Program-made: the position numbers and the translations under genes
DNA from: Planctomycetota bacterium
Lineage (GTDB): Bacteria; Planctomycetota; MHYJ01; WSZJ01
Assembly: GCA_038060895.1 (NCBI GenBank)
Contig: JBBTCT010000031.1
Coordinates: forward strand, 127,145-191,144
Direction of reading: 5' to 3'
DNA: 64,000 nucleotides
Notes under the pieces: generated by a model
Told to the model about the DNA's origin: nothing
The model's input: only the letters and a program-made list of their open reading frames with translations
The model's database searches: none
In this document: piece after piece, positions 25,906-38,470 of the stretch
Position numbering within the stretch: position 1 is the first letter of the stretch
Layout: every line of letters starts with the position of its first letter

Positions 25906-25951
25906 GATGGGCAGACCGGGGGTCGAACCCGGGACTCCTGGATTTTCAATC
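25906..25951 (-). repeat. att site (duplicated 3' part of tRNA-Phe)
   Basis: GATGGGCAGACC...GGATTTTCAATC is identical to 38397-38442. Confidence 0.95.
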
Positions 25952-26075
25952 AAGGGACTTCGCAGCGCAAGAATGCGCGCAAGCGCCAATTGCGACAGGG
26001 ACTTGCGGCGATTGCCCCGTTTCGCAGATTGCCCTTGGCCCCAGCCAAGGCCCCATATCCGCCTCCGAAAGCGCC

Positions 26076-27227
26076 TCATTTCGCAAGCGCCTCCCGAACG
26101 CCGTTCCGCCCGAGCGCCAGCACGTTCCCGAGCTTCTCCACTGCGGACAGCCCGGCCTCCGGCGCGAAGTGCGCGTAGCGCATGGTCATTGCGAGCGTGG
26201 CGTGTCCGAGGATTTTCGACACGTCGAAGATCGGGACTCCGGCGGCGACCATGAGAGAAGCGGCGGTATGCCGGAGAGTGTGAAACGTGACTTTAGGGAG
26301 CTTCTCCGCCGGGATCGCCTTGCGAACCTCTTCGGCGCGGAGCGCCCGGGCGAGCCCCTTTTTCAGCACGGTCTTTGTGATCCGCTTGCCGTTCGCCTGC
26401 CGGAAAACGGGATCGTCGCCCTTGAGAGCGGCGGCGTTGACGGAGCGGGCGGCGTGAAGTGCCGACAACTCCGCGAAGAGGTCCGCCGAAATCTTGATCG
26501 CCCGCCCCTTCCCGCTCTTCGAGTTCTCCGGTTCAACGAAGATCGTCCGCCGGTCGAAATCAACGGAGCGCCACGAAAGCCGGATGCACTCGCCCTGCCT
26601 CATGCCGGTTGAAACTGCCGTCGTCAGCACGGGCCGCATGACGGCATCGGCGGAGGCGACAAGCGCCCGCGCCTCCGTCGCCGCGAGGTACGTTTCCCGT
26701 TCCCTGCCCTTCTCCGAAAACTTCTCAACGTCGCGGATCGGATTCGCGGCGACGTGGCCCATTCTCCGCCCCCACTTGAACAGGGCGGAAGCGGCGTGAA
26801 TGTCCCTGTTGCACGTCGCGACGGAAACGGCTTTCCGTCGCTCTTCGATCCACTTCACAAAGTCCGAAGCGCGCAGGTCGGAGAGGTAGCGTTTCCCGAA
26901 CGGAGCCGCGCAGAGTCCGCGAAGCCGAACAGCGTCAATCGCGCGGGTCGAATCCTTCACGCGGCCCTTGCGGTATTCGAGGAAGAGTCCCGACGCACCC
27001 TCAAACGTGAGGCGGGAAGCGGGAGCGCCGCCGAACGCTTCCGCGCACGCTCTGTCGAGGTCCGCTCCGCCGTCGAGCTTACTGCGGAGCTTGGCAAGGT
27101 TGCTCTTTGCCACGTCCCGCCCAATGCCCGCATACTTTTCGACCGTCACGCCACGCCAGGTAACGCGAGCGTAGAAGCCGGGCCGGTCCCCGCGAGTCTT
27201 GAGAGAGCCGAAGTCGCGCCTACTCAT
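26076..27227 (-). CDS. int: Tyrosine recombinase/integrase
   Basis: GMRQGE, SKSGK, FHTLRH, ILGH and MRYAH catalytic motifs; next to att. Confidence 0.93.
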   Translation of the reverse strand: MSRRDFGSLKTRGDRPGFYARVTWRGVTVEKYAGIGRDVAKSNLAKLRSKLDGGADLDRACAEAFGGAPASRLTFEGASGLFLEYRKGRVKDSTRAIDAVRLRGLCAAPFGKRYLSDLRASDFVKWIEERRKAVSVATCNRDIHAASALFKWGRRMGHVAANPIRDVEKFSEKGRERETYLAATEARALVASADAVMRPVLTTAVSTGMRQGECIRLSWRSVDFDRRTIFVEPENSKSGKGRAIKISADLFAELSALHAARSVNAAALKGDDPVFRQANGKRITKTVLKKGLARALRAEEVRKAIPAEKLPKVTFHTLRHTAASLMVAAGVPIFDVSKILGHATLAMTMRYAHFAPEAGLSAVEKLGNVLALGRNGVREALAK

Positions 27228-27411
27228 GCTTGCCTCCCTTCTTCGAGTTCCTCGCGGCAACGGCGTCTTCCAAAAGGACGCGGGCGAGGTCGGACAGGTT
27301 GCGCCGGTCGGACTCTGCAAGCGCCTTCAAGGTCGCGTGCAGTTCCGGCGTCAGGCGAACGAAGAGCATCGAGGTCTTCAAGGCTTTCCCCTTTCGCGTT
27401 GGTTGTCTCAT
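27220..27411 (-). CDS. Ribbon-helix-helix (Arc-like) DNA-binding protein
   Basis: LFVRLTPELHATLKALAESDRRNLSDLARVLLE; overlaps the int start. Confidence 0.7.
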   Translation of the reverse strand: MRQPTRKGKALKTSMLFVRLTPELHATLKALAESDRRNLSDLARVLLEDAVAARNSKKGGKHE

Positions 27412-27418
27412 GCGGGGA

Positions 27419-27448
27419 ATCTTACTGTACGGTGTCAGACATTGTCAA
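27419..27448 (-). promoter_or_regulatory. sigma70-like promoter for RHH-int with TGTC-A-GACA palindrome
   Basis: Minus strand TTGACA-N18-TAAGAT; palindrome lies in the spacer. Confidence 0.55.
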
Positions 27449-28153
27449 GTACAATCCGACAGTCTGGGGAGGAAGTGATATCACTCGCTCGGCGACGGGT
27501 TCCCCGCGAAAGCCGTGCGCGCGTCGGGTTCGCGCGAGCCGGGCCGGGCCGGGAAGCGAGGCCGGAGAGAGCGAAGCGAGTCGATTTGCCCCATTCCGTG
27601 CGGGGAGGGACCCGCGTACCGAAATCGTTAAGCCCGACCATCGCTCGCGCGGGGGCATGGAGAAAGTGAAGCGGGCGATCCGGTGCGCGTCCCCTGCCGC
27701 ACTAGTCCGGGCCGCCCGCTCCGCGAGAAACGGTAGCACGGCGTGGGGGGAGGAGAGCAAGGGGACCGGGGTAGGTCAGGTGGAACCTCGCTCGAATGGA
27801 ACCGCGCCTGTCCTGTATGTCCCCGCGAATCGAGTTTCCCCCGACGAAAACAAAACCCCGGTCGGATCGCTTCGATACGTCCAATGGTTCGGATCAGGGT
27901 ATGGCAGGGAGGGAAGGCAACCCGACCGGGACCGCGAGTTTACGAAGGTCGGGGCGAAGGGCAAGAAGGCGGAGGGGCCGGGGAGAGATGTGCGGTCATC
28001 AGGTCCATTCGCCCTGAGTTTGGTTCCATCCGCGAGGAATCGTTCCGCCGAGCGCGGTCGATCAGGTCCATTTCCTTTCGCGTTGGGAGTCCCGCGTCCC
28101 ATACGATCCAGTCGTTCCTCATCCTCTCGCCCCTAAAGCTTGGAGCCTAGACC

Positions 28154-28579
28154 ATGCGAGTTGCTTTCGCTCACTTCGCCGACTTCGTGAACATTACCCA
28201 CGATGGAAAGTTGAACGTCCTCGGCATCTTCGAGGCTGTTCGGGCAACGCATGTGCCTGCCTCGATTCCGTCGCTGGCACTGGTCTTCCGGGTAGAAGCT
28301 GAGGCGCACGAACTCGGTCGAGACTTGACGATTCTCGTCGATGTCCAGACTCCGAAGGGCGTCTCTATCCCCGTAATCAACGCTCCGTTCCGTGTCGAGA
28401 GACTCGTTCCCGACGATCCCGGCCCAACGTTTTCGACAAACGTGACGGTGACGCTTCAGAACCTCGTTCTTGAGTCCTTCGGACGGTACGAGTTCCGCCT
28501 CCTTCACTTCCAAGTGGTCCTTCATTCACTCGCGCTAACGGTTTTGCCGATTCCTCTGGCGAAGTCCAAGGCGAAGTAG
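28154..28579 (+). CDS. Beta-rich hypothetical protein (DUF6941-like)
   Basis: AHFADFVNITHDGKLNVLGIFE..FGRYEFRL pattern; first gene of the hicAB operon. Confidence 0.6.
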   Translation: MRVAFAHFADFVNITHDGKLNVLGIFEAVRATHVPASIPSLALVFRVEAEAHELGRDLTILVDVQTPKGVSIPVINAPFRVERLVPDDPGPTFSTNVTVTLQNLVLESFGRYEFRLLHFQVVLHSLALTVLPIPLAKSKAK

Positions 28580-28583
28580 CCGC

Positions 28584-28838
28584 ATGGCCAGTGCCGCGGA
28601 GAAGCTGTTGGAGAGAATGCGTGCCACCAAGTTCGGGTGGCAGCCGAAGGATTTTGAGACATTGTTCTCCGGGCACGGTTACGACTCGACCGAAGGAAAG
28701 AAGCACACGACCTACACGCATCCCAGACATTCAGACCTCACGATGCAGATTCCAAGACACCGTGACTTGAAACCGTGCTATGCGAGGGTATCGGTTAGAA
28801 TCATCGACGAGCTTTCTAAACGGGAGGCCCCGAAGTAA
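28584..28838 (+). CDS. hicA: HicA-family toxin
   Basis: EGKKHTTYTHP..IPRHRDLKPCY, 84 aa. Confidence 0.75.
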   Translation: MASAAEKLLERMRATKFGWQPKDFETLFSGHGYDSTEGKKHTTYTHPRHSDLTMQIPRHRDLKPCYARVSVRIIDELSKREAPK

Positions 28839-29201
28839 ATGGCGAAGCGAAGCGTGCTGGAAGGCGGATACCTCGTTCGGTCCGAAATCACCACGGACAC
28901 GGACGAGAGTGGCGCTCTGTACTTCGTCGCCAAGGCAATCGACCTGCCCGGGTGCATCAGCGACGGAACTACCGAGTCCGAGGCTCTACGAAATCTGTTT
29001 GATGCAGCGGCGGACTATATCCGCGCTCTGGAATCGAAGGGACTCCCGATCCCGAAGGCTCCCAACCTGGCCGTCAAGTTCGACTCTGTCGTAGCGAAGG
29101 ATTCGGCGTTCGCAATGAGCAAATTGTGCGGGGCGCTCTCCAAGCCTGCACGAGTGGCCTTCACTGACATTCCCGCCAAGCGCGACTTGGTGCTTTCCTA
29201 G
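28839..29201 (+). CDS. hicB: HicB-family antitoxin with a non-canonical tail
   Basis: DLPGCISDGTTESEALRNLFDA..GLPIPK. Confidence 0.8.
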   Translation: MAKRSVLEGGYLVRSEITTDTDESGALYFVAKAIDLPGCISDGTTESEALRNLFDAAADYIRALESKGLPIPKAPNLAVKFDSVVAKDSAFAMSKLCGALSKPARVAFTDIPAKRDLVLS

Positions 29202-29279
29202 GCAAACGGCTCATTCGACGGCGCGTTCTCGGGGCTCATGGCGGCGACTTTATGTTTCCCGATTGCGCACGACCGCTCG

Positions 29280-30983
29280 CTAAACAAGGTCCTGAGGCAG
29301 GAACTTTCCGATCTCCCTAGCGAGTCGCTTCTGCCTTGCAAGAATCGGTGCTCGTCCCCACTTGACGTGCTTCTTGGGAAGCTCCTTCGTTATTTCTAGC
29401 TCCGAAGCGAGGTACGACTTTTTCTTCTTAACGTAGAGGTGGTTTGATCCCTGTCGATTGAGGGGTCCAGCGATCAACGTCAGATTTCCGAGCATGTAGA
29501 CGAGTTTGTCGTGTTGAGGCAATCGTTTACCTGACGGAGGCTTCTGCGGGTAAATGTGTTCCACCTGGACCTTTGCACCGGAGGCAACGACGCGCAATTC
29601 GCCGGTAGAGTGTCGGCTCGTTTCGAGGGCGGTCAGGACGACGCGAGCGGCCTTGTTTCGCTTCGGAGGGAAGGCCAAGCGGTTGAGCTTCCGGCTGACC
29701 TCGTCGTTACTCGGGGAAAGCGCCCGTAAAATGCGAAGACCCGATTCAAGTTGGCGATCATCACTGATGGCTTTCGCGCAACCATACGCCGCAGATTCGA
29801 ATTTTCCTGGCTCCAGGCCGCAGATGACGTTGTGCCGAAGCGCGAGGCAGATCAAGGCCCGGGCGAGCTTACAGCACTCCTCCGCCTGCAGGGAATTGTG
29901 CGCAGCCAGAAGAGCGGGAAAGGACGACGTTGCTTTCACGTCGGAGAGATCGCGAGCCGCTTGGTCCACGGCGTCTACTCCGGTCCTGCCCTTGTGCAAG
30001 CTTTTTAGGTACGACGCGTCCCTCTCCAGATTACGCGAGTATTCGACCGCGCTCGTTTTCGATGAGGTAAGGTCGTCCTTGATTTCCTTGTAGAGCGCCC
30101 GAGTTTTCACGTCCCCGTGAGTGGACACCCAGGATGATCGAATCATTCCGTCAACGTTGCGTTCGCCGTGAGTCTCCGCGATGCGCGTCCATAGATTCAC
30201 GACTTCGCTGCGCGAAGAGAGCGGTCTTGGATTCGCCAGCAGCCAGCTGCGGAGCAGATCCGAAGTAGAAAGCGAGAGCCCACGCTCGTTCAATGTCTCA
30301 AAAATGGACGCAGCCTGATCGTGATCGTCAGAGATTATCGCAACAATACCGAAGTGTTTCGTGATAGCGCCCGAAAGTCGCAGGAGGCGACCCACCCTTG
30401 CCTCCTCAGTCTTCTCGCCAGCGAGCAACTCATCAATGAGCCCTCGAAGTCGCCGCCTCGCTCCGAGAATCAGCTTGTGAGAACGGTGAGAAGGCCGCAG
30501 CTTGGAATCCTCAAATCCCTCATCCTGAACAACTCGCTTGAAGAATTCGCGATCCGCAACGTTCAGTTCGAGCCTGTACGTTTTCGGTTGAGAGGGGTCG
30601 AGGCGGTCCTGGCCCGAGATGAAAGTATTTTGGATGTACTCCGCCGAGTCGTTCGCGTCGTTCTCGTCGTTTGCCCTGCTTCGAAGATTGTCTCGGAACA
30701 ACGCGAGTAGGATGGTCGCGGTAGCAAATCTCTGCTGACCATCCAGCACAAGGAGGTGGTCCCCGTTTTTCACCATGACCACTGTTCCGAGGAAGTACCC
30801 GGCGTTTCCATCAGGCTTTGGGTACTTCTTGTCGAAGCCGAGGAGATCCTCCCAAAAGTCAGTGACTTCCTTGGCCCTCCAGCTGAAATCCCGCTGGTAG
30901 TCTGGGACTCGAATGGGAAACTTCTTGTCACTCAGAGCGTCCCCGAGTGTCTTTTTCTCGGGCGTGTAACTCGTTGAAGACAT
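29280..30983 (-). CDS. DUF262-DUF1524 (GmrSD/SspE-like) endonuclease
   Basis: PDYQRDFSW, LDGQQR, FETLNERG; HNH-like VEHIYPQ..LGNLTL..N..SN. Confidence 0.88.
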   Translation of the reverse strand: MSSTSYTPEKKTLGDALSDKKFPIRVPDYQRDFSWRAKEVTDFWEDLLGFDKKYPKPDGNAGYFLGTVVMVKNGDHLLVLDGQQRFATATILLALFRDNLRSRANDENDANDSAEYIQNTFISGQDRLDPSQPKTYRLELNVADREFFKRVVQDEGFEDSKLRPSHRSHKLILGARRRLRGLIDELLAGEKTEEARVGRLLRLSGAITKHFGIVAIISDDHDQAASIFETLNERGLSLSTSDLLRSWLLANPRPLSSRSEVVNLWTRIAETHGERNVDGMIRSSWVSTHGDVKTRALYKEIKDDLTSSKTSAVEYSRNLERDASYLKSLHKGRTGVDAVDQAARDLSDVKATSSFPALLAAHNSLQAEECCKLARALICLALRHNVICGLEPGKFESAAYGCAKAISDDRQLESGLRILRALSPSNDEVSRKLNRLAFPPKRNKAARVVLTALETSRHSTGELRVVASGAKVQVEHIYPQKPPSGKRLPQHDKLVYMLGNLTLIAGPLNRQGSNHLYVKKKKSYLASELEITKELPKKHVKWGRAPILARQKRLAREIGKFLPQDLV

Positions 30984-31171
30984 CGCGCCATTTCCTCCGC
31001 GAAATTCCCCGCCGAAGTACTTACAACTCGGAAGCAAGAGTAGCGATGACCCAGCAGGGGGAACAAGCGAATTGGAGGCCCCGCCCTTAGAGCGAGGATT
31101 CCGGTTTGTCCGCTCGCGTCGAGCCCGGGGAGCCAGCGTGCCGCAATACCCGCTCAGGGGGATATCGCTCC

Positions 31172-31600
31172 CTACTCCTCCAACTTTTTTCGGGGGTCGA
31201 AGGCGAGCGGCTTCAGGATCGCCTTGTCGCGAAGTCGAGTAGCTACGGTCTTGACCTCCGTCTTGGTCAACGCGCTGAAATCGACGAGCGCGTGCGCAGG
31301 ATCGACAACGGGAGCGGTTTCAGGGTCCTCGTATACCGAAAGCTGTTGGTCGGCGAAGTCTTGGACCGCAAGATCGACCACGCCGTCGGAAGGTCTCCCT
31401 TTCTTCCCGGTGTAGAGAGCGTGAGCCTCCTTGGCCGTCGTCAGCGAGCCGCGCGATACAGACAGCATCCCCTCGTCCTCGGTGCCGGGGCGAAATGCTT
31501 GACTAGAGATAGTGCCAGGCACGAAGAACTTAGGATGAATCTGACGAAACAGCGACTCCGCCGCCTCGGTCAGCCGAGGCTTACCCGTGAGCTGGTCCAA
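31172..31600 (-). CDS. Putative ADP-ribosyltransferase-fold toxin/effector
   Basis: GGAGG RBS plus TTG start; LFRQIHP, SSQAF, LSV and DPAHALV motif order. Confidence 0.5.
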   Translation of the reverse strand: MDQLTGKPRLTEAAESLFRQIHPKFFVPGTISSQAFRPGTEDEGMLSVSRGSLTTAKEAHALYTGKKGRPSDGVVDLAVQDFADQQLSVYEDPETAPVVDPAHALVDFSALTKTEVKTVATRLRDKAILKPLAFDPRKKLEE

Positions 31601-31603
31601 GTC

Positions 31604-33028
31604 CTAGCCTCCCGTGACCAGCGAATCGAAGAATCGCGAGAACTCCGAGCCAACAGAGGGTGAATCCAAGTTGAGTTCCACATCCTTGGCCCCTGCGTTC
31701 TTCTTGCTGACGGCTAACAAGCTCGCATGGTGAGCCGCGTGGTCGAACTCAGCTTCCACACTCCAGGAGCCTAGGCTCCACTCCGCTTGAATGTTTCCTT
31801 CCGGAGTTGGAAAGAGATGCGGCGTCGGGAGCCCCGAGCCAATGATGACTTTGGCGTAGACTCGCACGAACCACGCTAGCCCCTGCGCGCTCAAGTGCTT
31901 CCCGCCGGGGCCGAGCCAGCCGTCCTTCAGTTCTGAAAGTTCTCGGAGTCTCTCAGCCGAAGAAGCAAAGGCTCCACCCTTCTTGTCCCGTAGCATCGCA
32001 AGCTGAGCCTCGAAATCCGCCGTGCTGAAAATGTCTTCGATTTCCGACCATTGCTTGAGGTAGTACCGGTTGCCCCGGATTGCGCTCTCGTGCCGCCGGA
32101 GCCAATCGAGTTCCATCCGCGCGTCCTCCAGCCGACCGTCCTCGATAGCGACTGAGGCGGCCATAAGGTGCGGCGGGACTTCGGTACCGTGCTCCCGGAT
32201 CGCCTCATCAGCGAATCGGCGAGCTTCAACGCGCTCTCCGAGGTCGCTATACAGGATGGTAAGCAAGACGCGGGCATGAAGGAGGTGGGGCTCGTCCGAC
32301 TTCTTGTCGGGCTTCGCTGCGTCCAAAGCTCGCCTGAGAATTTCGGCCGCTTTCCGGTTTTGCTTCGCGTCGAGATAAATAAACGCCATCCCGCAAGACG
32401 CCCCCAGATCGCGTGGCCAGAGTTGAAGAATCCGTTGTAGGAGTTCGACACTCCGCCCACGGTTTCCACTGTTGTTGGCCGCGAGAGCAAGATTGAAGAG
32501 CGCCTGCCGACTGTCGGGGACCTTTGCGAGAATCGCGTTGAAGTACGACTCGGCCTCGGCGAATCGCCCGAGCTTCGCAAACATCACGCCTACCTCGTTC
32601 AACAGCTGCAGATCGTTCGGATACGCTCGGAGTAGTCGCAACGCCCTCTCAACTACAGGAGGGAACTGCTGCGGCTCCAGGGAAATACTCGAAAGGTCAA
32701 TCGAGCGAGGGCTCCGAACGACAAGCTTCTGCCCGACAAGTGGTTCTTTTCGCCAAGCCACCCGATTCTTGAGCCGAGACTGTTCGATCATCAATTGTTC
32801 GCGAACGAATTTTCCTGGATCGAGATTGGAGTACTTCCACGCTCCCGGAAAATCCTGTTTCGCAATCGGCGGCTCGTAGTTCGGCCTGACTCGAACCAAG
32901 GGTTCCGGTGCTTGAACAAATTCTGCAGCTGGAGGAGCCATTCTCAACAGCATCCATTTATTCTCCCAAGGATGTCTCGTGCCCGCAACGCCGGGCTTCA
33001 TCCAGTCCTTCGCGGCGCGTGGAGGCAT
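31604..33028 (-). CDS. TPR protein with a C-terminal putative antitoxin domain
   Basis: About 5-6 TPR-like helical pairs; C-terminal RLRELSELKDGW..LPTPHLFPTPEGNIQAEW. Confidence 0.65.
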   Translation of the reverse strand: MPPRAAKDWMKPGVAGTRHPWENKWMLLRMAPPAAEFVQAPEPLVRVRPNYEPPIAKQDFPGAWKYSNLDPGKFVREQLMIEQSRLKNRVAWRKEPLVGQKLVVRSPRSIDLSSISLEPQQFPPVVERALRLLRAYPNDLQLLNEVGVMFAKLGRFAEAESYFNAILAKVPDSRQALFNLALAANNSGNRGRSVELLQRILQLWPRDLGASCGMAFIYLDAKQNRKAAEILRRALDAAKPDKKSDEPHLLHARVLLTILYSDLGERVEARRFADEAIREHGTEVPPHLMAASVAIEDGRLEDARMELDWLRRHESAIRGNRYYLKQWSEIEDIFSTADFEAQLAMLRDKKGGAFASSAERLRELSELKDGWLGPGGKHLSAQGLAWFVRVYAKVIIGSGLPTPHLFPTPEGNIQAEWSLGSWSVEAEFDHAAHHASLLAVSKKNAGAKDVELNLDSPSVGSEFSRFFDSLVTGG

Positions 33029-33070
33029 CGCTTTCGGTAGGGCGCGGCAGGGACAGATTTGACAGCGCTG

Positions 33071-33304
33071 TCAAAGCGCCCTGCCTTTCAGGACGGCGCT
33101 GAGTGAATCCCAGGTTACACGGATTCGACTGTTCGAACCGGCCCCCCGAAATCCGAGTAGCTTCCCGGCTCTCAGCATCCGGCGGACGACCTTTCGATTC
33201 ATCCCCAGCGCCCGACAGGTCTCCGGCAGACTGAGCGACAACGGGGGGCGATCTTGGCCCAGGTTGGGAGACCTTGGGGGAGAGAGATCGTTTCCGAGGT
33301 TCAT
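33071..33304 (-). CDS. HTH_17/excisionase-like protein
   Basis: LSLPETCRALGMNRKVVRRMLRAGKL; TGATG overlap. Confidence 0.65.
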   Translation of the reverse strand: MNLGNDLSPPRSPNLGQDRPPLSLSLPETCRALGMNRKVVRRMLRAGKLLGFRGAGSNSRIRVTWDSLSAVLKGRAL

Positions 33305-33522
33305 CAGAGCCACCGCCGCTTCACGAACTCATTGAGCGTCTGAGCGAAGACCATGATCCGCCCGGGACTCGTCCGGGCGCGGTTTTCCATCGGTCCGGAG
33401 GCGCGAAACGCCCCCAAGTATCCAAGCTTGATCCACCTCCGGACGGTTTTGTGATGGACATTGAGCAACCTTGCTACCTCTCGGATCGGAAGACCAAGGC
33501 CAGTCCGTTCATGCTCGTTCAT
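33304..33522 (-). CDS. HTH_17/MerR-like DNA-binding protein
   Basis: IREVARLLNVHHKTVRRWIKLGYL; start uncertain. Confidence 0.65.
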   Translation of the reverse strand: MNEHERTGLGLPIREVARLLNVHHKTVRRWIKLGYLGAFRASGPMENRARTSPGRIMVFAQTLNEFVKRRWL

Positions 33523-33592
33523 GCTTGCCACCTGAAATACGTTCTTTTTGGCGCGGGAGCCTTCACGGGCTCCGAAATCGCGGTTTTTGGCT

Positions 33593-34066
33593 CTACGGTT
33601 GACCCCAAGGAATGCGTCCGGCCCTGCGTCGGACATGCCCCCGTTGCCTGCGCTGATGCGAGAGCGCCAGTAGGACAAGCCAAGTTCCGAGCTTCATGGC
33701 GTGGAGATAACGTCGGGTCTCGATCTTGAGCAGCGCCATCGCTTGCTTCTCTGGAAGCCCCTCGGCAACTCGCTCGGCGAAGCTCTTCGGTGTGCGTTCT
33801 AGGTCCCTCTCGATGGAACGGCGGAGACTCGGCATGAGGTCGCGGAAGCAGTCCGATCCGAAGAGCCGCCTAGCGTTCTCCGCACAGTGGCGGCCCAGCT
33901 CGTCTATCGCGTCTTCGATGGACTCAAGTTCCATCCGAACGAATCGCGGAGACTCCGGCGGGGGTAGGGGTGCCGGAGGCGGCAAGGCAGGGGAAGGCCA
34001 AATCCCCTCTACGAAGCGCCGGAGACAATCACCCTCGAATTGATGCCGCAGGTCAACGCGGTTCAT
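33593..34066 (-). CDS. Hypothetical protein (element backbone)
   Basis: In a tightly overlapping minus-strand operon. Confidence 0.45.
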   Translation of the reverse strand: MNRVDLRHQFEGDCLRRFVEGIWPSPALPPPAPLPPPESPRFVRMELESIEDAIDELGRHCAENARRLFGSDCFRDLMPSLRRSIERDLERTPKSFAERVAEGLPEKQAMALLKIETRRYLHAMKLGTWLVLLALSHQRRQRGHVRRRAGRIPWGQP

Positions 34067-34289
34067 TCCTGCCCCTCCTGCGGCGCGTCCACGGGCACCA
34101 TTTCCCCGCGACTTGCTCTTCCACGAAGACGCGAACGGCCCGCATCGGTAGCCGGATGAGGTAGCCAACGCGGACGTGAGGGAGCTTGCCCGCGCGGACA
34201 AGCCGGTAGACCGTTTTCACGTCGCAGGAAAAGAGCGCGGCGACGGTGCGCGGACTGGCGAAGGCTTCACGCCATGGGTCTCCGTTCAT
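34053..34289 (-). CDS. HTH_17/excisionase-like protein
   Basis: SPRTVAALFSCDVKTVYRLVRAGKLPHVRVGYLIR. Confidence 0.7.
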   Translation of the reverse strand: MNGDPWREAFASPRTVAALFSCDVKTVYRLVRAGKLPHVRVGYLIRLPMRAVRVFVEEQVAGKWCPWTRRRRGRNEPR

Positions 34290-34558
34290 TTCTGCCCTCC
34301 GGCCAAGGGGGACGTAGGCGGGCGCGTTGGGATGTATTGCCCTGGCACCTCCGCGCGAATTTTCTCCGCTGGCGAGTCGAGCCCCGGCGAGCGCGTCCAA
34401 AGGATGAAGTCCACGATTCCGGCCTTGTGGCGAAGTAGCAGCGCCAGCACGTCGGGAGTGACGATGCCCGGCGGAGCGGCCCACGCGAGCCCGGACGCGG
34501 CCACGGAGAGCCGGACCCCGGCGGAGTAGAGGTCGGCCATGAGGTCGGGAACGCTCAC
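34286..34558 (-). CDS. TubC-N docking-domain-like small protein
   Basis: LMADLYSAGVRLSV..LAWAAPPGIVTPDVLALLLRHK. Confidence 0.6.
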   Translation of the reverse strand: MSVPDLMADLYSAGVRLSVAASGLAWAAPPGIVTPDVLALLLRHKAGIVDFILWTRSPGLDSPAEKIRAEVPGQYIPTRPPTSPLAGGQK

Positions 34559-36642
34559 AGGACGCCTCCTTCCTCCGCATACTTCCCGTTTTCCGAAAAC
34601 TCGGAAGTATGGGGAGGTACTTCCGTACTTCCCGGTTTCCTACCGGGGGGAAAGTCGGAAGTAGGAAGTTCCCACACGACGCGGCTTCCTTCGCCAGCCC
34701 CTTCCCGCCGGTCCCGGCCCCCGAGTCGCTTGAGGGCTTCGCGTAGCGCATCATCGGAGAAGCCAAGCCTTGAGCCTGCGGCGACTACCTCGACGGAGTG
34801 AACCGGCCCCCCGGCGAGCTTATCCTTCATGAATGCATCCGCCCGAGCGTGTTTGTCCGCTCGCGTCTCTTTCCCGCCCTTCGCGTCCGCCGCGACGATT
34901 TCCTCCGCCGTCACGTCCACCGTGCCGGGCAGCCATTCGGCGAACGGAATTTCGCCGAGGTCCGGGCGGTCGGGGAGCGTCTTCGTCGCGATGCGATAGG
35001 CGCGGGTCTTCGGCTTCTTCGCGAGGTTGATCTTCGCCATTGCGACAAGCCGCCGGGTGGGGTCTTCCCGATCTTCGGCCACCAAGACGACGGAGCGCGG
35101 CGCATTTCCGAATGCTCCCGAGCCGGAGGCGGCGTACACGGCCTTCGTAATCGCGCCCTTGGGAGGGTGAGTGATGAAGAGAAGGACAGCGCCCGATTTC
35201 GCGGCGAATTCCGAACAGGCAACGAGAGCGGCGCGAACCTCGGCGTTGTTGTGGCTGTCCACGTCACCCAGGTACGCGGACACGGGGTCAACGACGACAA
35301 GCCGCAAGTCTCCCAACGCCCGAGCCGATTTCGTCAGGTCTTCCACGTCGGCGAGGGTGAAGGCGCGAGTCTTCCCGTCAGGACGTTTGACCATCTGAAG
35401 GAAATTGACGCGAGCGAGGTCCGCTCCCGCCGCCATGAGACGGGGAATCAGCGTGTCGCCGGGATCGTCTTCGGCGCTGATGATGATGACGGAGCCCAAC
35501 GGGGCGAAACCGGAGCCGTCCGGCCACTCCGCGCCTTTCGTGATCCGGGCGGCGAGGTCACACAGAAGCATCGTCTTCCCGAGCCCGGCGAGCCCTACCC
35601 ATATGGCGGGCTTGCCGGACGGAATCCAGCCCGGCCACGTCCACGCGAGTGGTTTGGCGGGGATGGAATCGGCGCGGAGAAGGACGGGCTCCGTCCCGGT
35701 CTGCGTCTCGGGAGGCGCTTCGCCTCCGGCGTCGAACAGCGCCGTCAATTCGCCGACGATTCCTTCGTCGGAGGAGCCGGTCTTCCTCCGCCATTCGATC
35801 CAATCCACCACGTCCGCCCCTCCGCCGAGCCCCGCGATTCCCGGTAGCCGGACGATGCGCGAGCGAGCTGGGGGCGAGAGTTTCGATAGCCGGTTCGCTA
35901 CATCTAGGGCAAGGGCTTCGCCGGGCTTGTCGGCATCCGGGAGAATCCGCACGTCCCGGCCAGCGAGCGGGGCGAAGTCGGACTTGTCGGCGGCATTCGC
36001 TCCGTGCGCGTTCGTCGTCACGGTGAAGCCGAGAGCAGCAAGAGCTTCGGCGCACTTCTCCCCTTCGACGTAGACGACAAGCCGCGACTTTCCGAGCAGA
36101 GGGAGCCGGTAGAGCGGCAGCGGCGCGGGCGGATCGCCGACGCGCCAGCCGTCCACATCACGGCGCACGGGCCGGTATTCCTTCGTGCTGAAGGGCATTC
36201 CATCGTCGCCTGTCTTCGTCACGTTGAAGCGCAATACGGCGAAGAGTTCGGAGCCGTCCGCCCGGTGGTAAGTCCAGCGCCCGGCCTCCGGGCCTTCGAT
36301 GCGTTTCGAGAGCGCGAGCGCGGCGGCGTCGAGCGAGCCGTAGCACGGGGCGGGCGACTTGATCGGCGCGGCGGAGCGTGGAGCCGTCGAGCCGTTCGCG
36401 CCTTCGGGCTTCCAGCCGAGCCGAGCGCGAAGAGCCGAGCCCTTGCCGGTCGCTTCGGAGCAGGAGCAGGCGGAGGCATCCTTCGCCACGTCGAATCCGA
36501 ATGACGGCGACTTATCCTCGTGATCCGGGAGCGGACAACGCCCTATCACTTTGTCCCCTACGCGGCGGCGGGAGCCCTTTGAATCGTCGGCGAGCAGGTA
36601 ATCGGCGAAGGCTTCGGCCTCCGCCCTGAAATCGCGGGTCAC
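34555..36642 (-). CDS. Primase-helicase (Zn finger, Toprim, AAA_25/RepA-like helicase)
   Basis: CPLPDHED..CSC, VEGEKC, DADKPG, GLAGLGKT, VVVDP, ITHPPK. Confidence 0.88.
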   Translation of the reverse strand: MTRDFRAEAEAFADYLLADDSKGSRRRVGDKVIGRCPLPDHEDKSPSFGFDVAKDASACSCSEATGKGSALRARLGWKPEGANGSTAPRSAAPIKSPAPCYGSLDAAALALSKRIEGPEAGRWTYHRADGSELFAVLRFNVTKTGDDGMPFSTKEYRPVRRDVDGWRVGDPPAPLPLYRLPLLGKSRLVVYVEGEKCAEALAALGFTVTTNAHGANAADKSDFAPLAGRDVRILPDADKPGEALALDVANRLSKLSPPARSRIVRLPGIAGLGGGADVVDWIEWRRKTGSSDEGIVGELTALFDAGGEAPPETQTGTEPVLLRADSIPAKPLAWTWPGWIPSGKPAIWVGLAGLGKTMLLCDLAARITKGAEWPDGSGFAPLGSVIIISAEDDPGDTLIPRLMAAGADLARVNFLQMVKRPDGKTRAFTLADVEDLTKSARALGDLRLVVVDPVSAYLGDVDSHNNAEVRAALVACSEFAAKSGAVLLFITHPPKGAITKAVYAASGSGAFGNAPRSVVLVAEDREDPTRRLVAMAKINLAKKPKTRAYRIATKTLPDRPDLGEIPFAEWLPGTVDVTAEEIVAADAKGGKETRADKHARADAFMKDKLAGGPVHSVEVVAAGSRLGFSDDALREALKRLGGRDRREGAGEGSRVVWELPTSDFPPGRKPGSTEVPPHTSEFSENGKYAEEGGVL
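34580..34670. repeat. Iteron-like repeats (putative element origin)
   Basis: TACTTCC/GGAAGTA at 34580, 34603, 34618, 34626, 34657 and a near copy at 34664. Confidence 0.6.
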
Positions 36643-36905
36643 TTGTTTCCGCCTTCCTTCGGGCGGGGACGAAGGAGCGCGAGGAATTCCGGCTTTGGCA
36701 CAAGGGGATTCGAGCGGGCCGCGCGAGAAGGCAGCGACGGGACGGCGAACCCTTCGAGCGCGCGTTCAAGTTCGGACTCCGCGAGCCGCCAGCATCGTCC
36801 GATTCGAAGTGCGCGGCCCAACTCGCCACGGCGAAGCATCGTCCGCACGTTTACGGGGTGCAGTTGGAGACGCGCCGCGAGGTCGGCGACCGTGAGCAGG
36901 TTCAT
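36639..36905 (-). CDS. HTH_17/AlpA-like protein
   Basis: LLTVADLAARLQLHPVNVRTMLRRGEL..IGRCWRL. Confidence 0.7.
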   Translation of the reverse strand: MNLLTVADLAARLQLHPVNVRTMLRRGELGRALRIGRCWRLAESELERALEGFAVPSLPSRAARSNPLVPKPEFLALLRPRPKEGGNK

Positions 36906-37114
36906 TTGTCCCACCCCCGCGCCCGATCCTCCTCCGCGATGATCGCCCGGACCTGTTCGATGGCTTCTGACGGCCAGATGCGCGTGATGCCAGCCCGGAA
37001 ACAGGCCGCGAGTCGGTCGCGGTACTCGAATACGACGCGCTCTCCCCGTGCCCGAGTGATGCCGATTGACCGGCATATTTCAGGGAGCGTTACTCCCGGC
37101 TTCGCTTCGTTCAT
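36902..37114 (-). CDS. Small putative HTH protein
   Basis: GGAGG RBS; VTLPEICRSIGIT; overlaps the next gene. Confidence 0.5.
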   Translation of the reverse strand: MNEAKPGVTLPEICRSIGITRARGERVVFEYRDRLAACFRAGITRIWPSEAIEQVRAIIAEEDRARGWDK

Positions 37115-37229
37115 TCAGCCTCCAAGCGACGGCGCTGTTGCAGTCATCGCCGTACACTTGGGGACAGGGCTTCCGGCCCTTGCGGGCTAGGAATTCCAGG
37201 AATTCCACGAATTCCAGATTTGCCAGCGG

Positions 37230-38180
37230 CTATGGCTTGGAACGAGGCGGCCGCTTCACGGTCAGCCCCTTCGAGTCGCCTTCGAAGTAGGTCTCTCCGG
37301 GCTTGGGCGGCTTCTTCTCGCGCGGCTTCTTGGGCGGGGTCGGAACGTCGTTGTCTCCCTGCGTCTTCCCAAAGTTGGGCAATTCGCGCTTGGCCCATTC
37401 GAGCAGGGGGGTCCGGTCCGCAGTCGGAGGACGCCTAAGACCCCCAAAGATGATCGGGCAGTCCTTCGTCGTCTGAGCCCACTTCGCGAACTTCTTCCAG
37501 GATCGTCCCTTGAGCCCGAGGACTCCGAGAATCTCTTTCGAGCCGAACAAGCGGTCATTCGGAGGCAGGGCATCCGGTTTCTTCTCGGAGAAGCCTTCAA
37601 CGCGCGGCCACGGATCGGCCTCGACTGGAGCCGAATCTAGTGCCCCCTTCAGTGTCGCTATGGCATCGTCCTTATCGCCCCCTACAACCGTCACCTTCCC
37701 CGTTTCGATGAGCCCGGCAATTTCCGCCTGTTGGTCGAGTCTCCGAGTCTCGGCTAGGTGTAACAACCCGATCAGATCGGCGTATCCCCCCCAGCGTTCG
37801 CTCCTCTCTCGCTTCTGGTTCCAAAGACACACGGTCGCCCAAGTGTGATAGGGACGGAAGAGAACGTCGGGATTTGCGCCCGCGTCCAACAGAACGCCGA
37901 TCTCCCGCGAGCGGTACAACTCGGGGAAATACTGCTTCACGAATTCTCGGTAGTCGCGCCATTCTTCCGACGCCGGGCGGACGGGCGCTTCTGTCTTGTA
38001 ACTGGCCGAGCCCGGCTTTCTCATCCGCGCGAAATCGGCTTGCATCTTTAGCGATGCGGCGGTGGGCGGTTGGCGTCGAAGAATCTCGGAGTACCTGTCA
38101 AACGCAAGCAACTGATCGTCGTCGGGCGAGCTTGGCGGGGCAGGCAGGCGAAGCGCAATCAGGTCGGATGAAGGGTTCAC
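37230..38180 (-). CDS. Hypothetical protein with a possible C-terminal winged HTH
   Basis: GGAGG RBS; GSKEILGVLG..DCPI..RTPLLEW. Confidence 0.5.
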   Translation of the reverse strand: MNPSSDLIALRLPAPPSSPDDDQLLAFDRYSEILRRQPPTAASLKMQADFARMRKPGSASYKTEAPVRPASEEWRDYREFVKQYFPELYRSREIGVLLDAGANPDVLFRPYHTWATVCLWNQKRERSERWGGYADLIGLLHLAETRRLDQQAEIAGLIETGKVTVVGGDKDDAIATLKGALDSAPVEADPWPRVEGFSEKKPDALPPNDRLFGSKEILGVLGLKGRSWKKFAKWAQTTKDCPIIFGGLRRPPTADRTPLLEWAKRELPNFGKTQGDNDVPTPPKKPREKKPPKPGETYFEGDSKGLTVKRPPRSKP

Positions 38181-38398
38181 GGGTCAACCTCCCGCAAGAG
38201 AGCGGGAGCGGGGCCGGGTTGAGCGGCCCCGCGTCCCGCGAAAAGAGCGCGGCCCGTCGGCCACGCCAGCGTGTCAGTTTAGGCGAGCGGTCCCGCAATG
38301 GAAGCGGGAACCTTGGCCCCCTTCTAGGCCCCACATGGCCCCAGATTTCAGAGTCCGAGCCACGTCGAGCCACTTCACGTCCGCACTATGAAAACCGA

Positions 38399-38470
38399 TG
38401 GGCAGACCGGGGGTCGAACCCGGGACTCCTGGATTTTCAATCCAGAGCTCTACCACTGAGCTATCTGCCC
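38399..38470 (-). tRNA. tRNA-Phe(GAA)
   Basis: Cloverleaf GGGCAGA..TCTGCCC-A; anticodon arm CTGGA-TTGAAAA-TCCAG; GTTCGA T-loop. Confidence 0.97.

Follow-up and report, generated by a model that had tools for sequence, protein, structure and literature searches.

The subject of this report is a pair of minus-strand genes, gene 1 (31604..33028, encoding the A protein) and gene 2 (31172..31600, encoding the B protein), located in a stretch of 64,000 nucleotides (nt) from the Planctomycetota assembly GCA_038060895.1 (contig JBBTCT010000031.1, positions 127,145 to 191,144), which is referred to below as the window and whose numbering is used throughout. The pair represents a new architecture of the PADLOC entry PDC-M32, a candidate system that is catalogued and uncharacterised, and is not a new kind of system; a first-pass annotation, made from the sequence alone, had held that it was not a named system, and in that it was mistaken. 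On balance, and with slightly better than even confidence, we regard the pair as a toxin-antitoxin-like PDC-M32 defence module, composed of a toxin with an ADP-ribosyltransferase (ART) fold, a clamp domain at the C-terminus of the partner protein, and an exchangeable N-terminal regulatory or sensing part of that partner, which is a conserved domain of about 250 amino acids (aa) in most relatives, is missing in some, and is an array of tetratricopeptide repeats (TPR) in the window.

The two genes are tightly coupled. Gene 1 is an unbroken open reading frame (ORF) of 474 codons, with a maximal product of 474 aa counted from the first ATG, and its likely start is at 33001 (the 465-aa call) or at 32953 (the 449-aa call, with GGGAGA ahead of it); the public gene calls, identical in sequence to gene 1, begin at later starts and yield 465, 449 or 326 aa. 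On the coding strand gene 1 ends with ...ACG GGA GGC TAG, its stop codon occupying 31606..31604, which is followed by GAC, a gap of 3 nt, and by the TTG start codon of gene 2 at 31600..31598. The Shine-Dalgarno sequence of gene 2, GGGAGG (31608..31613, minus strand), lies within the final codons of gene 1, 7 nt ahead of the TTG, and the N-terminus of the 142-aa product read from this TTG aligns with the N-termini of its relatives. The ORF coordinates and the position of the GGGAGG thus bear out the first-pass annotation, which had described a two-gene unit with a 3-nt gap and a ribosome-binding site of the second gene inside the end of the first. Neither gene is a chance ORF, since each is matched independently by a profile hidden Markov model (HMM), gene 2 by PADLOC PDC-M32B (E 5.9e-34) and gene 1 by PDC-M32A (E 1.6e-22). 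Gene 2 is present as a single copy in the 5.4-Mb assembly, and neither an intrinsic terminator nor a convincing promoter was detected near the gene pair.

The match of gene 2 to PDC-M32B (PDLC04579) is a full-length one, in which residues 14-133 of the protein correspond to positions 4-119 of the 123 positions of the profile. In gene 1 it is the C-terminal portion of about 110 residues alone that matches, aa 358-467 corresponding to positions 259-367 of the 375 of PDC-M32A, and a BLASTP comparison with the canonical PDC-M32A protein P0008, which itself matches the model end to end (E 9e-141), likewise aligned aa 360-435 only. The order of the genes is that of PDC-M32, with A directly 5' of B on one strand and 3 nt between them. 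No PADLOC model besides PDC-M32A and PDC-M32B matched the pair at E<=1; for gene 2, Pfam returned no family at E<=1 and NCBIfam none, and NCBIfam added nothing specific for the pair. Weak counterparts of unknown function were found in PHROGs, namely phrog_31579 for gene 2 (8.9e-13) and phrog_30544 for gene 1 (3.9e-4). The PDC systems are "phage defence candidates", predicted from their embedding in BREX, DISARM or type I restriction-modification (RM) systems (bioRxiv 10.1101/2024.01.29.577857), and the available part of the text of that preprint states no mechanism for PDC-M32. The sole other paper found to mention PDC-M32 (PMC12429752) has it, in its available text, merely as a PADLOC match in Sinorhizobium prophages, and a literature search on ADP-ribosyltransferase, tetratricopeptide, antitoxin and anti-phage returned no paper giving a mechanism of this pair. 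The DefensePredictor preprint left the PDCs out as unvalidated.

A profile search of 1.84 billion representatives recovered 1453 members of the gene 2 family (E<=0.001), of which 950 reached E<=1e-10; of the 150 matches listed, almost all are stand-alone proteins of about 100-220 aa. In an alignment of 129 sequences, H103 is found in 129/129, R19 and S47 in 128/129 each and F36 in 127/129, followed by D42 and S71 (117/129 each), D107 and the Glu of position 81 (116/129 each, position 81 being E/D), S33 (110/129) and H22 (107/129). The motif order R19 / S32-S33-x-A-F36 / L46-S47-V48 / H103, on which the first-pass annotation had relied, is therefore real and conserved across this alignment. An AlphaFold2 model calculated from the family alignment (predicted local distance difference test, pLDDT, 95.9; predicted template-modelling score, pTM, 0.89) shows R19 in the strand formed by residues 16-20, S47 in that of residues 45-50, and H103 as the first residue of a strand spanning 103-107. 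These are strands 1, 2 and 5, which we take, by the general layout of the fold, to be the positions of the ART triad. Judged by strand, R19 and S47 would correspond to the R and S of an R-S-E triad, and the third conserved residue is H103, with D107 four residues further on. The clade profiles named in the available text of PMC9503650 are H-H-h, H-Y-[EDQ] and R-S-E; R-S-H is not among them.

When the gene 2 model was compared by VIA-align with 48,161 PDB representative chains, at least 40 of the best 50 rows, with Z from 7.9 to 3.0, were members of the ART superfamily as judged by their titles. The best neighbour was KptA (9ld3_A; Z 7.9, root-mean-square deviation 3.1, 94 aligned), over KptA residues 86-180, and the second was the toxin Tse2 (5ako_D; Z 7.4, 110/142 residues aligned), after which came mouse Tpt1 (Z 6.1), Scabin and AvrPphF ORF2 (both 5.9), Tne2 (5.2), DarT (4.6-4.4), diphtheria toxin (4.5) and TreTu (4.0), with TreX, SidE/SdeA, pertussis toxin, RES and MbcT in further rows. 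Weak Foldseek rows (AvrPphF ORF2, KptA and Tpt1) point in the same direction. It is the uniformity of this list of neighbours, and not any single score, that supports a split beta-sheet ART-type fold for gene 2, as the first-pass annotation had proposed, and this is support at the level of the fold and not a proof of homology. A Foldseek search of BFVD gave one unnamed viral protein (E 4e-4). The nearest named cluster in the ESM Atlas (score 0.93) was DUF6098, an assignment that was rejected on profile tests: PF19593 (DUF6098) found nothing in two genomes carrying B-family genes, and hhalign gave a probability of 0.3% for the B alignment when it was compared with 11 sequences of DUF6098. A literature search for DUF6098 found no paper.

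The same structural list could be taken to mean that gene 2 is no toxin, but a housekeeping NAD+-dependent enzyme related to KptA/Tpt1, acting on RNA ends or small molecules, with gene 1 as its regulatory subunit. Its best structural neighbour is indeed the NAD+-binding lobe of KptA/Tpt1 (four entries, with Z of 7.9, 6.1, 5.0 and 4.6), its invariant residue is a histidine, and the H-H-h clade, which holds KptA, acts in RNA repair and small-molecule modification according to the available text of PMC9503650. We nevertheless consider this very improbable, because the RNA-binding lobe is missing from gene 2, no Pfam family is matched, the first two positions of the triad are R and S and not H and H, and the family is patchy, with members on islands and prophage-like contigs as well as next to RM genes, and is present here in a single copy. 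Nor was gene 2 accepted as a member of KptA/Tpt1 proper, which have two lobes, since the protein of 142 aa aligns with residues 86-180 of KptA only.

The constant element of the partner protein is its C-terminal domain (aa 358-467; 31628..31957, minus strand), which is delimited by the PDC-M32A match, by its AlphaFold2 model and by the predicted interface, and which is the putative toxin-binding part. The model (pLDDT 90.6) is a sandwich of a helix, a five-stranded sheet and a helix (alpha-beta5-alpha) that carries the motifs GW and FPTPEG..EW; W371 and G411 are invariant in a 29-sequence alignment, and P407 and E416 are conserved in at least 90%. The C-terminal motif L..L..GW ... FPTPEG.IQAEW, to which the first-pass annotation had drawn attention, is thus a genuine feature, conserved across the 29 domain sequences. 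Complex prediction of this domain with gene 2, which had been suggested at the same time, returned a contact with a score of 0.85 (0.84, 0.85 and 0.86 in the separate runs) against 0.04 for the best control, a mark that 58 of 80 solved complexes attained, as did 2 of 110 mismatched pairs; these counts apply only roughly here, as the prediction was run with our own alignments. At least 96% of the contacts were shared between runs, with a partner pLDDT of at least 89. The predicted interface involves W371-P374, H404, F406-E410, Q414, E416 and S418 of gene 1, covering three of the four most conserved columns of the domain (W371, P407 and E416), and H22, K24, F25, V27, T30, S32-Q34, G39, T40, R69, P70 and helix 114-125 of gene 2. 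The C-terminal domain is accordingly predicted to bind gene 2.

What such binding would do is a separate matter. In the fold search with the domain the best neighbour was Med17C (Z 8.8), followed by TriTu (Z 7.6), the FP domain of Fbxo7 (7.4) and DR_1245 (7.0), and 11 of the best 50 structural neighbours were class I type III secretion chaperones, the chaperones encountered being SicP, SchA, SycH, AvrPphF ORF1 (Z 6.0), ExsC, Spa15, SpcS, SycT, VecA, SigE and SycN-YscB; frataxins and RWD/UEV domains were also among the neighbours. Two solved pairs of an ART protein and its partner, TreTu-TriTu and AvrPphF ORF2-ORF1, have members in both fold searches. The prominence of the secretion chaperones would suit a model in which the A protein is a chaperone, activator or targeting adaptor whose TPR array brings the enzyme to its substrate or to a partner complex. 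Such a model would also suit the report, in the available text of PMC11618068, that the ART toxin CmdT is insoluble and non-toxic without its partner CmdA, and the absence of the candidate catalytic residues from those named for the predicted interface. We hold it to be improbable, if less so than the housekeeping enzyme discussed above: an upstream partner and a downstream enzyme in overlapping or abutting frames are the usual layout of type II toxin-antitoxin systems, TriTu, the second-best neighbour of the domain, is the immunity protein of an ART toxin, and the neighbour list itself cannot assign a function or decide the matter, the arrangement being a common alpha+beta sandwich.

The pair recurs well beyond this organism. 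With an alignment of six sequences, gene 2 plus the five relatives closest to it, a genome scan retrieved 32 loci, distributed over Myxococcota, Binatia, Burkholderiales, Alphaproteobacteria, Planctomycetota and Actinomycetes, and in 29/32 of these genomic loci an ORF matched by an HMM of the C-terminal domain abuts or overlaps the gene 2 relative on the same strand. The domain thus recurs directly upstream of gene 2 relatives, in line with the first-pass annotation. One of the three misses (L016) has a canonical partner with a divergent C-terminal end (N-domain HMM match 1.9e-83), and in the other two (L031 and L032) the gene 2 match is itself a fragment. The pairing is also present in 8/10 metagenome loci and in 3/4 IMG/VR contigs. 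The front part of the partner is far more variable. The canonical N-terminal domain of about 250 aa was detected by its HMM in 28/46 loci, always in front of the C-terminal domain, 12 of the loci's own proteins matching by construction as they are included in the alignment behind that HMM, and it was not matched in the other 18 of the 46. The loci without it comprise nine genomic loci with partners of 140-177 aa, i.e. little more than the C-terminal domain, metagenome loci in which the partner has 178-212 aa, one locus truncated by the contig end, the fragmentary L031 and L032, and two loci that have a stand-alone C-terminal domain of 120-126 aa and no gene 2 relative. Since the N-terminal domain accompanies it in 28/46 loci and the C-terminal domain stands alone in nine genomic loci, it is the latter that is the constant partner of gene 2. 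A profile search of PDB sequences gave 0 matches for canonical A proteins, and the ESM Atlas yielded nothing usable for the canonical N-terminal domain of PDC-M32A.

Four IMG/VR contigs classed as viral (L052-L055) carry PDC-M32-type pairs; canonical A and B both match in L052-L054, and in L055 the upstream ORF matches the N-domain HMM only. These pairs on viral contigs agree with the PHROG matches and with the report of PDC-M32 in Sinorhizobium prophages. The two stand-alone C-terminal domain proteins lie on AT-rich metagenome contigs, at L045:2980-3692 and L043:2980-3716. In L045 the gene overlaps by 4 nt the next ORF, which encodes 111 aa and has no family match; in L043 the ORF that follows is a different one, of 138 aa, whose counterpart in L045 is located further downstream. 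In view of these lone domains, the clamp domain may pair with other small proteins as well.

In the window, the region ahead of the C-terminal domain is occupied by a TPR array (aa ~114-331, about 220 residues; 32036..32689, minus strand), for which the only Pfam matches in gene 1 are TPR families, TPR_16 (3.4e-11) being the best, followed by TPR_19 (1.4e-10), TPR_14, TPR_12 and others. A TPR array fused ahead of the C-terminal domain had been read from the sequence in the first-pass annotation, and Pfam confirms it. As the HMM of the canonical N-terminal domain, run against the window's six-frame ORFs, found no match at E<=1, the array, to judge by the sequence, stands in place of that domain. 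TPR and TPR-like arrays serve as phage-protein sensors in STAND proteins of the Avs type, and in CapRel(SJ46) it is the antitoxin domain that senses a capsid protein directly.

In the mechanism that we favour, gene 2 would most likely act on an essential component of the cell, modifying or destroying it with the use of NAD+, the favoured target being a nucleic acid or NAD+ itself, since the nearest folds are those of KptA/Tpt1 and Tse2. The C-terminal domain of about 110 residues would dock on gene 2 via its GW and FPTPEG..E motifs and hold the enzyme inactive, and the exchangeable N-terminal part would set the condition for release of the toxin, e.g. the binding of a phage protein, following which the freed toxin could cause growth arrest or abortive infection. 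A bolder form of this model, which we put forward only tentatively, would extend it to the whole family as a modular set of sensor-antitoxin and toxin pairs, in which the clamp holds an R-S-H ART enzyme of an unclassified kind, acting by ADP-ribosylation of nucleic acids or by burning of NAD+, the exchangeable N-terminal domain decides which phage cue frees the enzyme, and the TPR array represents a natural re-targeting of the system to a different phage protein.

A number of observations weigh against a sensor-controlled ART toxin as the reading of this pair. On the side of the enzyme, NAD+ chemistry is not assured, as the third conserved position is a His where known ART triads have Glu, Asp or Gln; the Z values of gene 2 are all below 8, which is middling by the tool's own calibration, as are most of the scores of the C-terminal domain; a profile search of PDB sequences with the gene 2 family gave 0 matches at E<=10; and the Foldseek comparison that the first-pass annotation had recommended points to ART proteins in its weak rows but retrieved nothing from the PDB at E<=0.001 for either model. 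The corresponding profile search with the C-terminal domain had kanamycin nucleotidyltransferase as its best match, at an insignificant E of 0.48, which was not read as homology. R19, S47 and H103 are not named among the interface residues of the predicted complex, so that occlusion of the active site would be no more than a possible mode of inhibition. The family as a whole is among the 145 PDCs that their own authors, Payne et al., call untested in the available text of the preprint (bioRxiv 10.1101/2024.01.29.577857). For the TPR part, the fusion was seen in this organism only, so that comparative support for a function is lacking: the 90% cluster of the window protein has three members, which are one sequence with different start calls; no other TPR-bearing partner was present among the 46 loci; among 15 long database matches to the C-terminal domain profile, TPR families occurred in the window's own cluster only; and 12 genomes of the same order contained one C-terminal domain match, in a frame of canonical size (389 aa), and no TPR partner, the other matches there being generic TPR similarity of 24-35% identity. 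Pfam likewise detected no TPR-bearing partner in 6 database proteins, 10 partners and 5 more partners, word-index searches with the C-terminal domain turned up none, and a metagenome scan with gene 1 gave 10 loci, all aligned to the C-terminal domain alone; it has to be noted that the pattern scans for TPR partners see close relatives only, which makes this absence weak evidence.

Alternatively, the pair could be an ordinary toxin-antitoxin addiction module that stabilises a mobile island, with the TPR part as a neutral, accidental fusion, created when deletion or recombination linked the 5' part of a TPR gene to the antitoxin domain, and with the C-terminal domain alone sufficing. The nine genomic loci whose partners of 140-177 aa are mostly C-terminal domain imply that pairing does not require an N-terminal part, the TPR fusion was seen in one organism only, and the pair does lie on a mobile island. 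We regard this as the less likely account, though as a serious one, for several reasons. The ORF is intact over 474 codons and its TPR matches span about 220 residues; the family was picked by its embedding in defence systems, according to the available text of bioRxiv 10.1101/2024.01.29.577857; and sensor swapping would be expected to leave just such a pattern, in which N-terminal parts are exchanged while the toxin-binding domain stays the same. Furthermore, relatives of the pair adjoin RM or other defence genes in 15/34 related loci, counted as an ORF of at least 220 aa within 4 kb with a PADLOC match at E<=1e-10, a figure that drops to 13/34 without the WYL-only and TniQ-only loci and that, standing without a background control, also counts among the weaknesses of the defence reading. 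The neighbouring matches include type I, IIG and III RM, PDC-S02, PDC-S03, PDC-M41/M30, RmrA, HNH, WYL and TniQ.

The island in question extends over 25906-38445 and is an integrative element of about 12.5 kb at tRNA-Phe. Its distal attachment-site repeat (25906..25954), which duplicates the 3' part of tRNA-Phe over 49 nt, is identical at 48/49 positions to the proximal repeat (38397..38445), which lies inside the tRNA-Phe gene (38399..38470, minus strand), and an integrase gene (27320..26076, minus strand) is placed between the two. The GC content is 55-60% across 28-33.5 kb, i.e. the cargo including the pair, versus 64-72% outside. The same cargo block carries a DUF6941 protein (28154-28579, plus strand), an ORF with a weak HicB-like antitoxin match (28839-29201, plus strand; E 6.5e-5, below the Pfam cut-off) that has no obvious HicA partner, and, directly downstream of the gene pair, a GmrSD-type two-domain gene (31037..29280, minus strand; Pfam GmrSD_N and GmrSD_C, PADLOC HEC-06 at 5.1e-97, also Orf5/SspE-like), which probably has a type IV restriction-like role in defence. 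The "defence hotspot" of the first-pass annotation is to this extent upheld, the unit being low-GC cargo of a tRNA-Phe island with a GmrSD-type gene adjoining it. The island also carries three HTH_17 (excisionase-like) genes and an AAA_25 primase-like gene, and its layout resembles that of a small satellite or an integrative mobilisable element. A 90-aa ORF (34286-34558, minus strand) that separates the HTH genes from the primase-like gene has a TubC_N docking-domain match (2.7e-7), an odd family for such a setting. A 17-nt sequence, GTTTGTCCGCTCGCGTC, is directly repeated without mismatch, at 31104-31120, in the spacer that immediately follows gene 2, and at 34851-34867, in the primase-like gene; within 14 kb such a repeat is unlikely to arise by chance.

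The value of the pair lies mainly in the handle that it provides on the whole PDC-M32 family, which gains a testable anatomy, namely an ART-fold effector with an unusual set of Arg, Ser and His and a small predicted clamp. Should the front half of the partner be a sensor, the family would represent a compact natural case in which sensors are swapped while the toxin-antitoxin core stays fixed, and NAD+-dependent immunity would gain a new branch; should the TPR fusion be accidental, the pair would still offer a clean entry point for characterising the PDC-M32 family.

Of the known ART systems, CmdTAC resembles the pair in concept only, in that an effector of ART fold is restrained by a partner protein until infection. 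According to the available text of PMC11618068, CmdT has a diphtheria-toxin-type H-Y-[E,D,Q] triad with the catalytic Y41, CmdA consists of two helices and a disordered tail, and CmdC is SecB-like. The gene 2 family, in contrast, conserves R19, S47 and H103, so that the CmdT-like character ascribed to gene 2 in the first-pass annotation does not stand; gene 1 contributes a folded alpha/beta sandwich as its partner domain, and a third gene is absent. Equally, the suggestion that the TPR array replaces the chaperone sensor of CmdTAC has no basis, no SecB family being among the Pfam matches of 15 neighbouring ORFs, where the neighbours are GmrSD and HTH_17. DarTG, which combines a DarT toxin with a macrodomain antitoxin, was considered and set aside: at E<=1 Pfam assigns gene 2 to no family and gene 1 to TPR families alone, PADLOC matches are confined to PDC-M32, and DarT is only a distant fold neighbour of gene 2 (Z 4.6-4.4). 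The likeness to KptA/Tpt1, the RNA 2'-phosphotransferase, is that of the NAD+-binding lobe, the best structural neighbour of gene 2; these are ART-fold enzymes in which a nucleic-acid phosphate attacks NAD+ (PMC9503650, available text), and gene 2, with its 142 aa, differs from them in having no N-terminal RNA-binding lobe and no Pfam or NCBIfam match, and in an R/S/H set in place of the H-H-h of that clade.

A parallel in organisation may also be drawn with ART toxins that have a dedicated protein partner. Tse2, of the Tse2-Tsi2 pair of Pseudomonas aeruginosa type VI secretion (PDB 5ako), is a small ART-fold toxin that acts in the cytoplasm, and its active site is occluded by Tsi2, according to the available part of a review (PMC6099711). 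It differs in that Tse2 is secreted and that gene 2 has no detectable sequence relationship to it, and Tsi2 is not among the structural matches listed for the C-terminal domain. In TreTu-TriTu (PDB 7zhl/7zhm), of which TreTu is an Rhs toxin, and AvrPphF ORF2-ORF1 (PDB 1s21/1s28) both partners are among the structural neighbours, TreTu (Z 4.0) and ORF2 (Z 5.9) for gene 2, and the immunity protein TriTu (Z 7.6) and the chaperone ORF1 (Z 6.0) for the C-terminal domain, in a range of Z where only a common arrangement may be shared. These effectors are secreted and show no sequence similarity, and their partners are not fused to a repeat array. With PDC-M32 itself, the pair has in common a full-length PDC-M32B in gene 2, a PDC-M32A-like C-terminus in gene 1, the A-then-B order and the tight coupling; it departs from it in the front half of the partner, where the canonical PDC-M32A of about 375 aa has its conserved N-terminal domain of about 250 aa and gene 1 has a TPR array instead.

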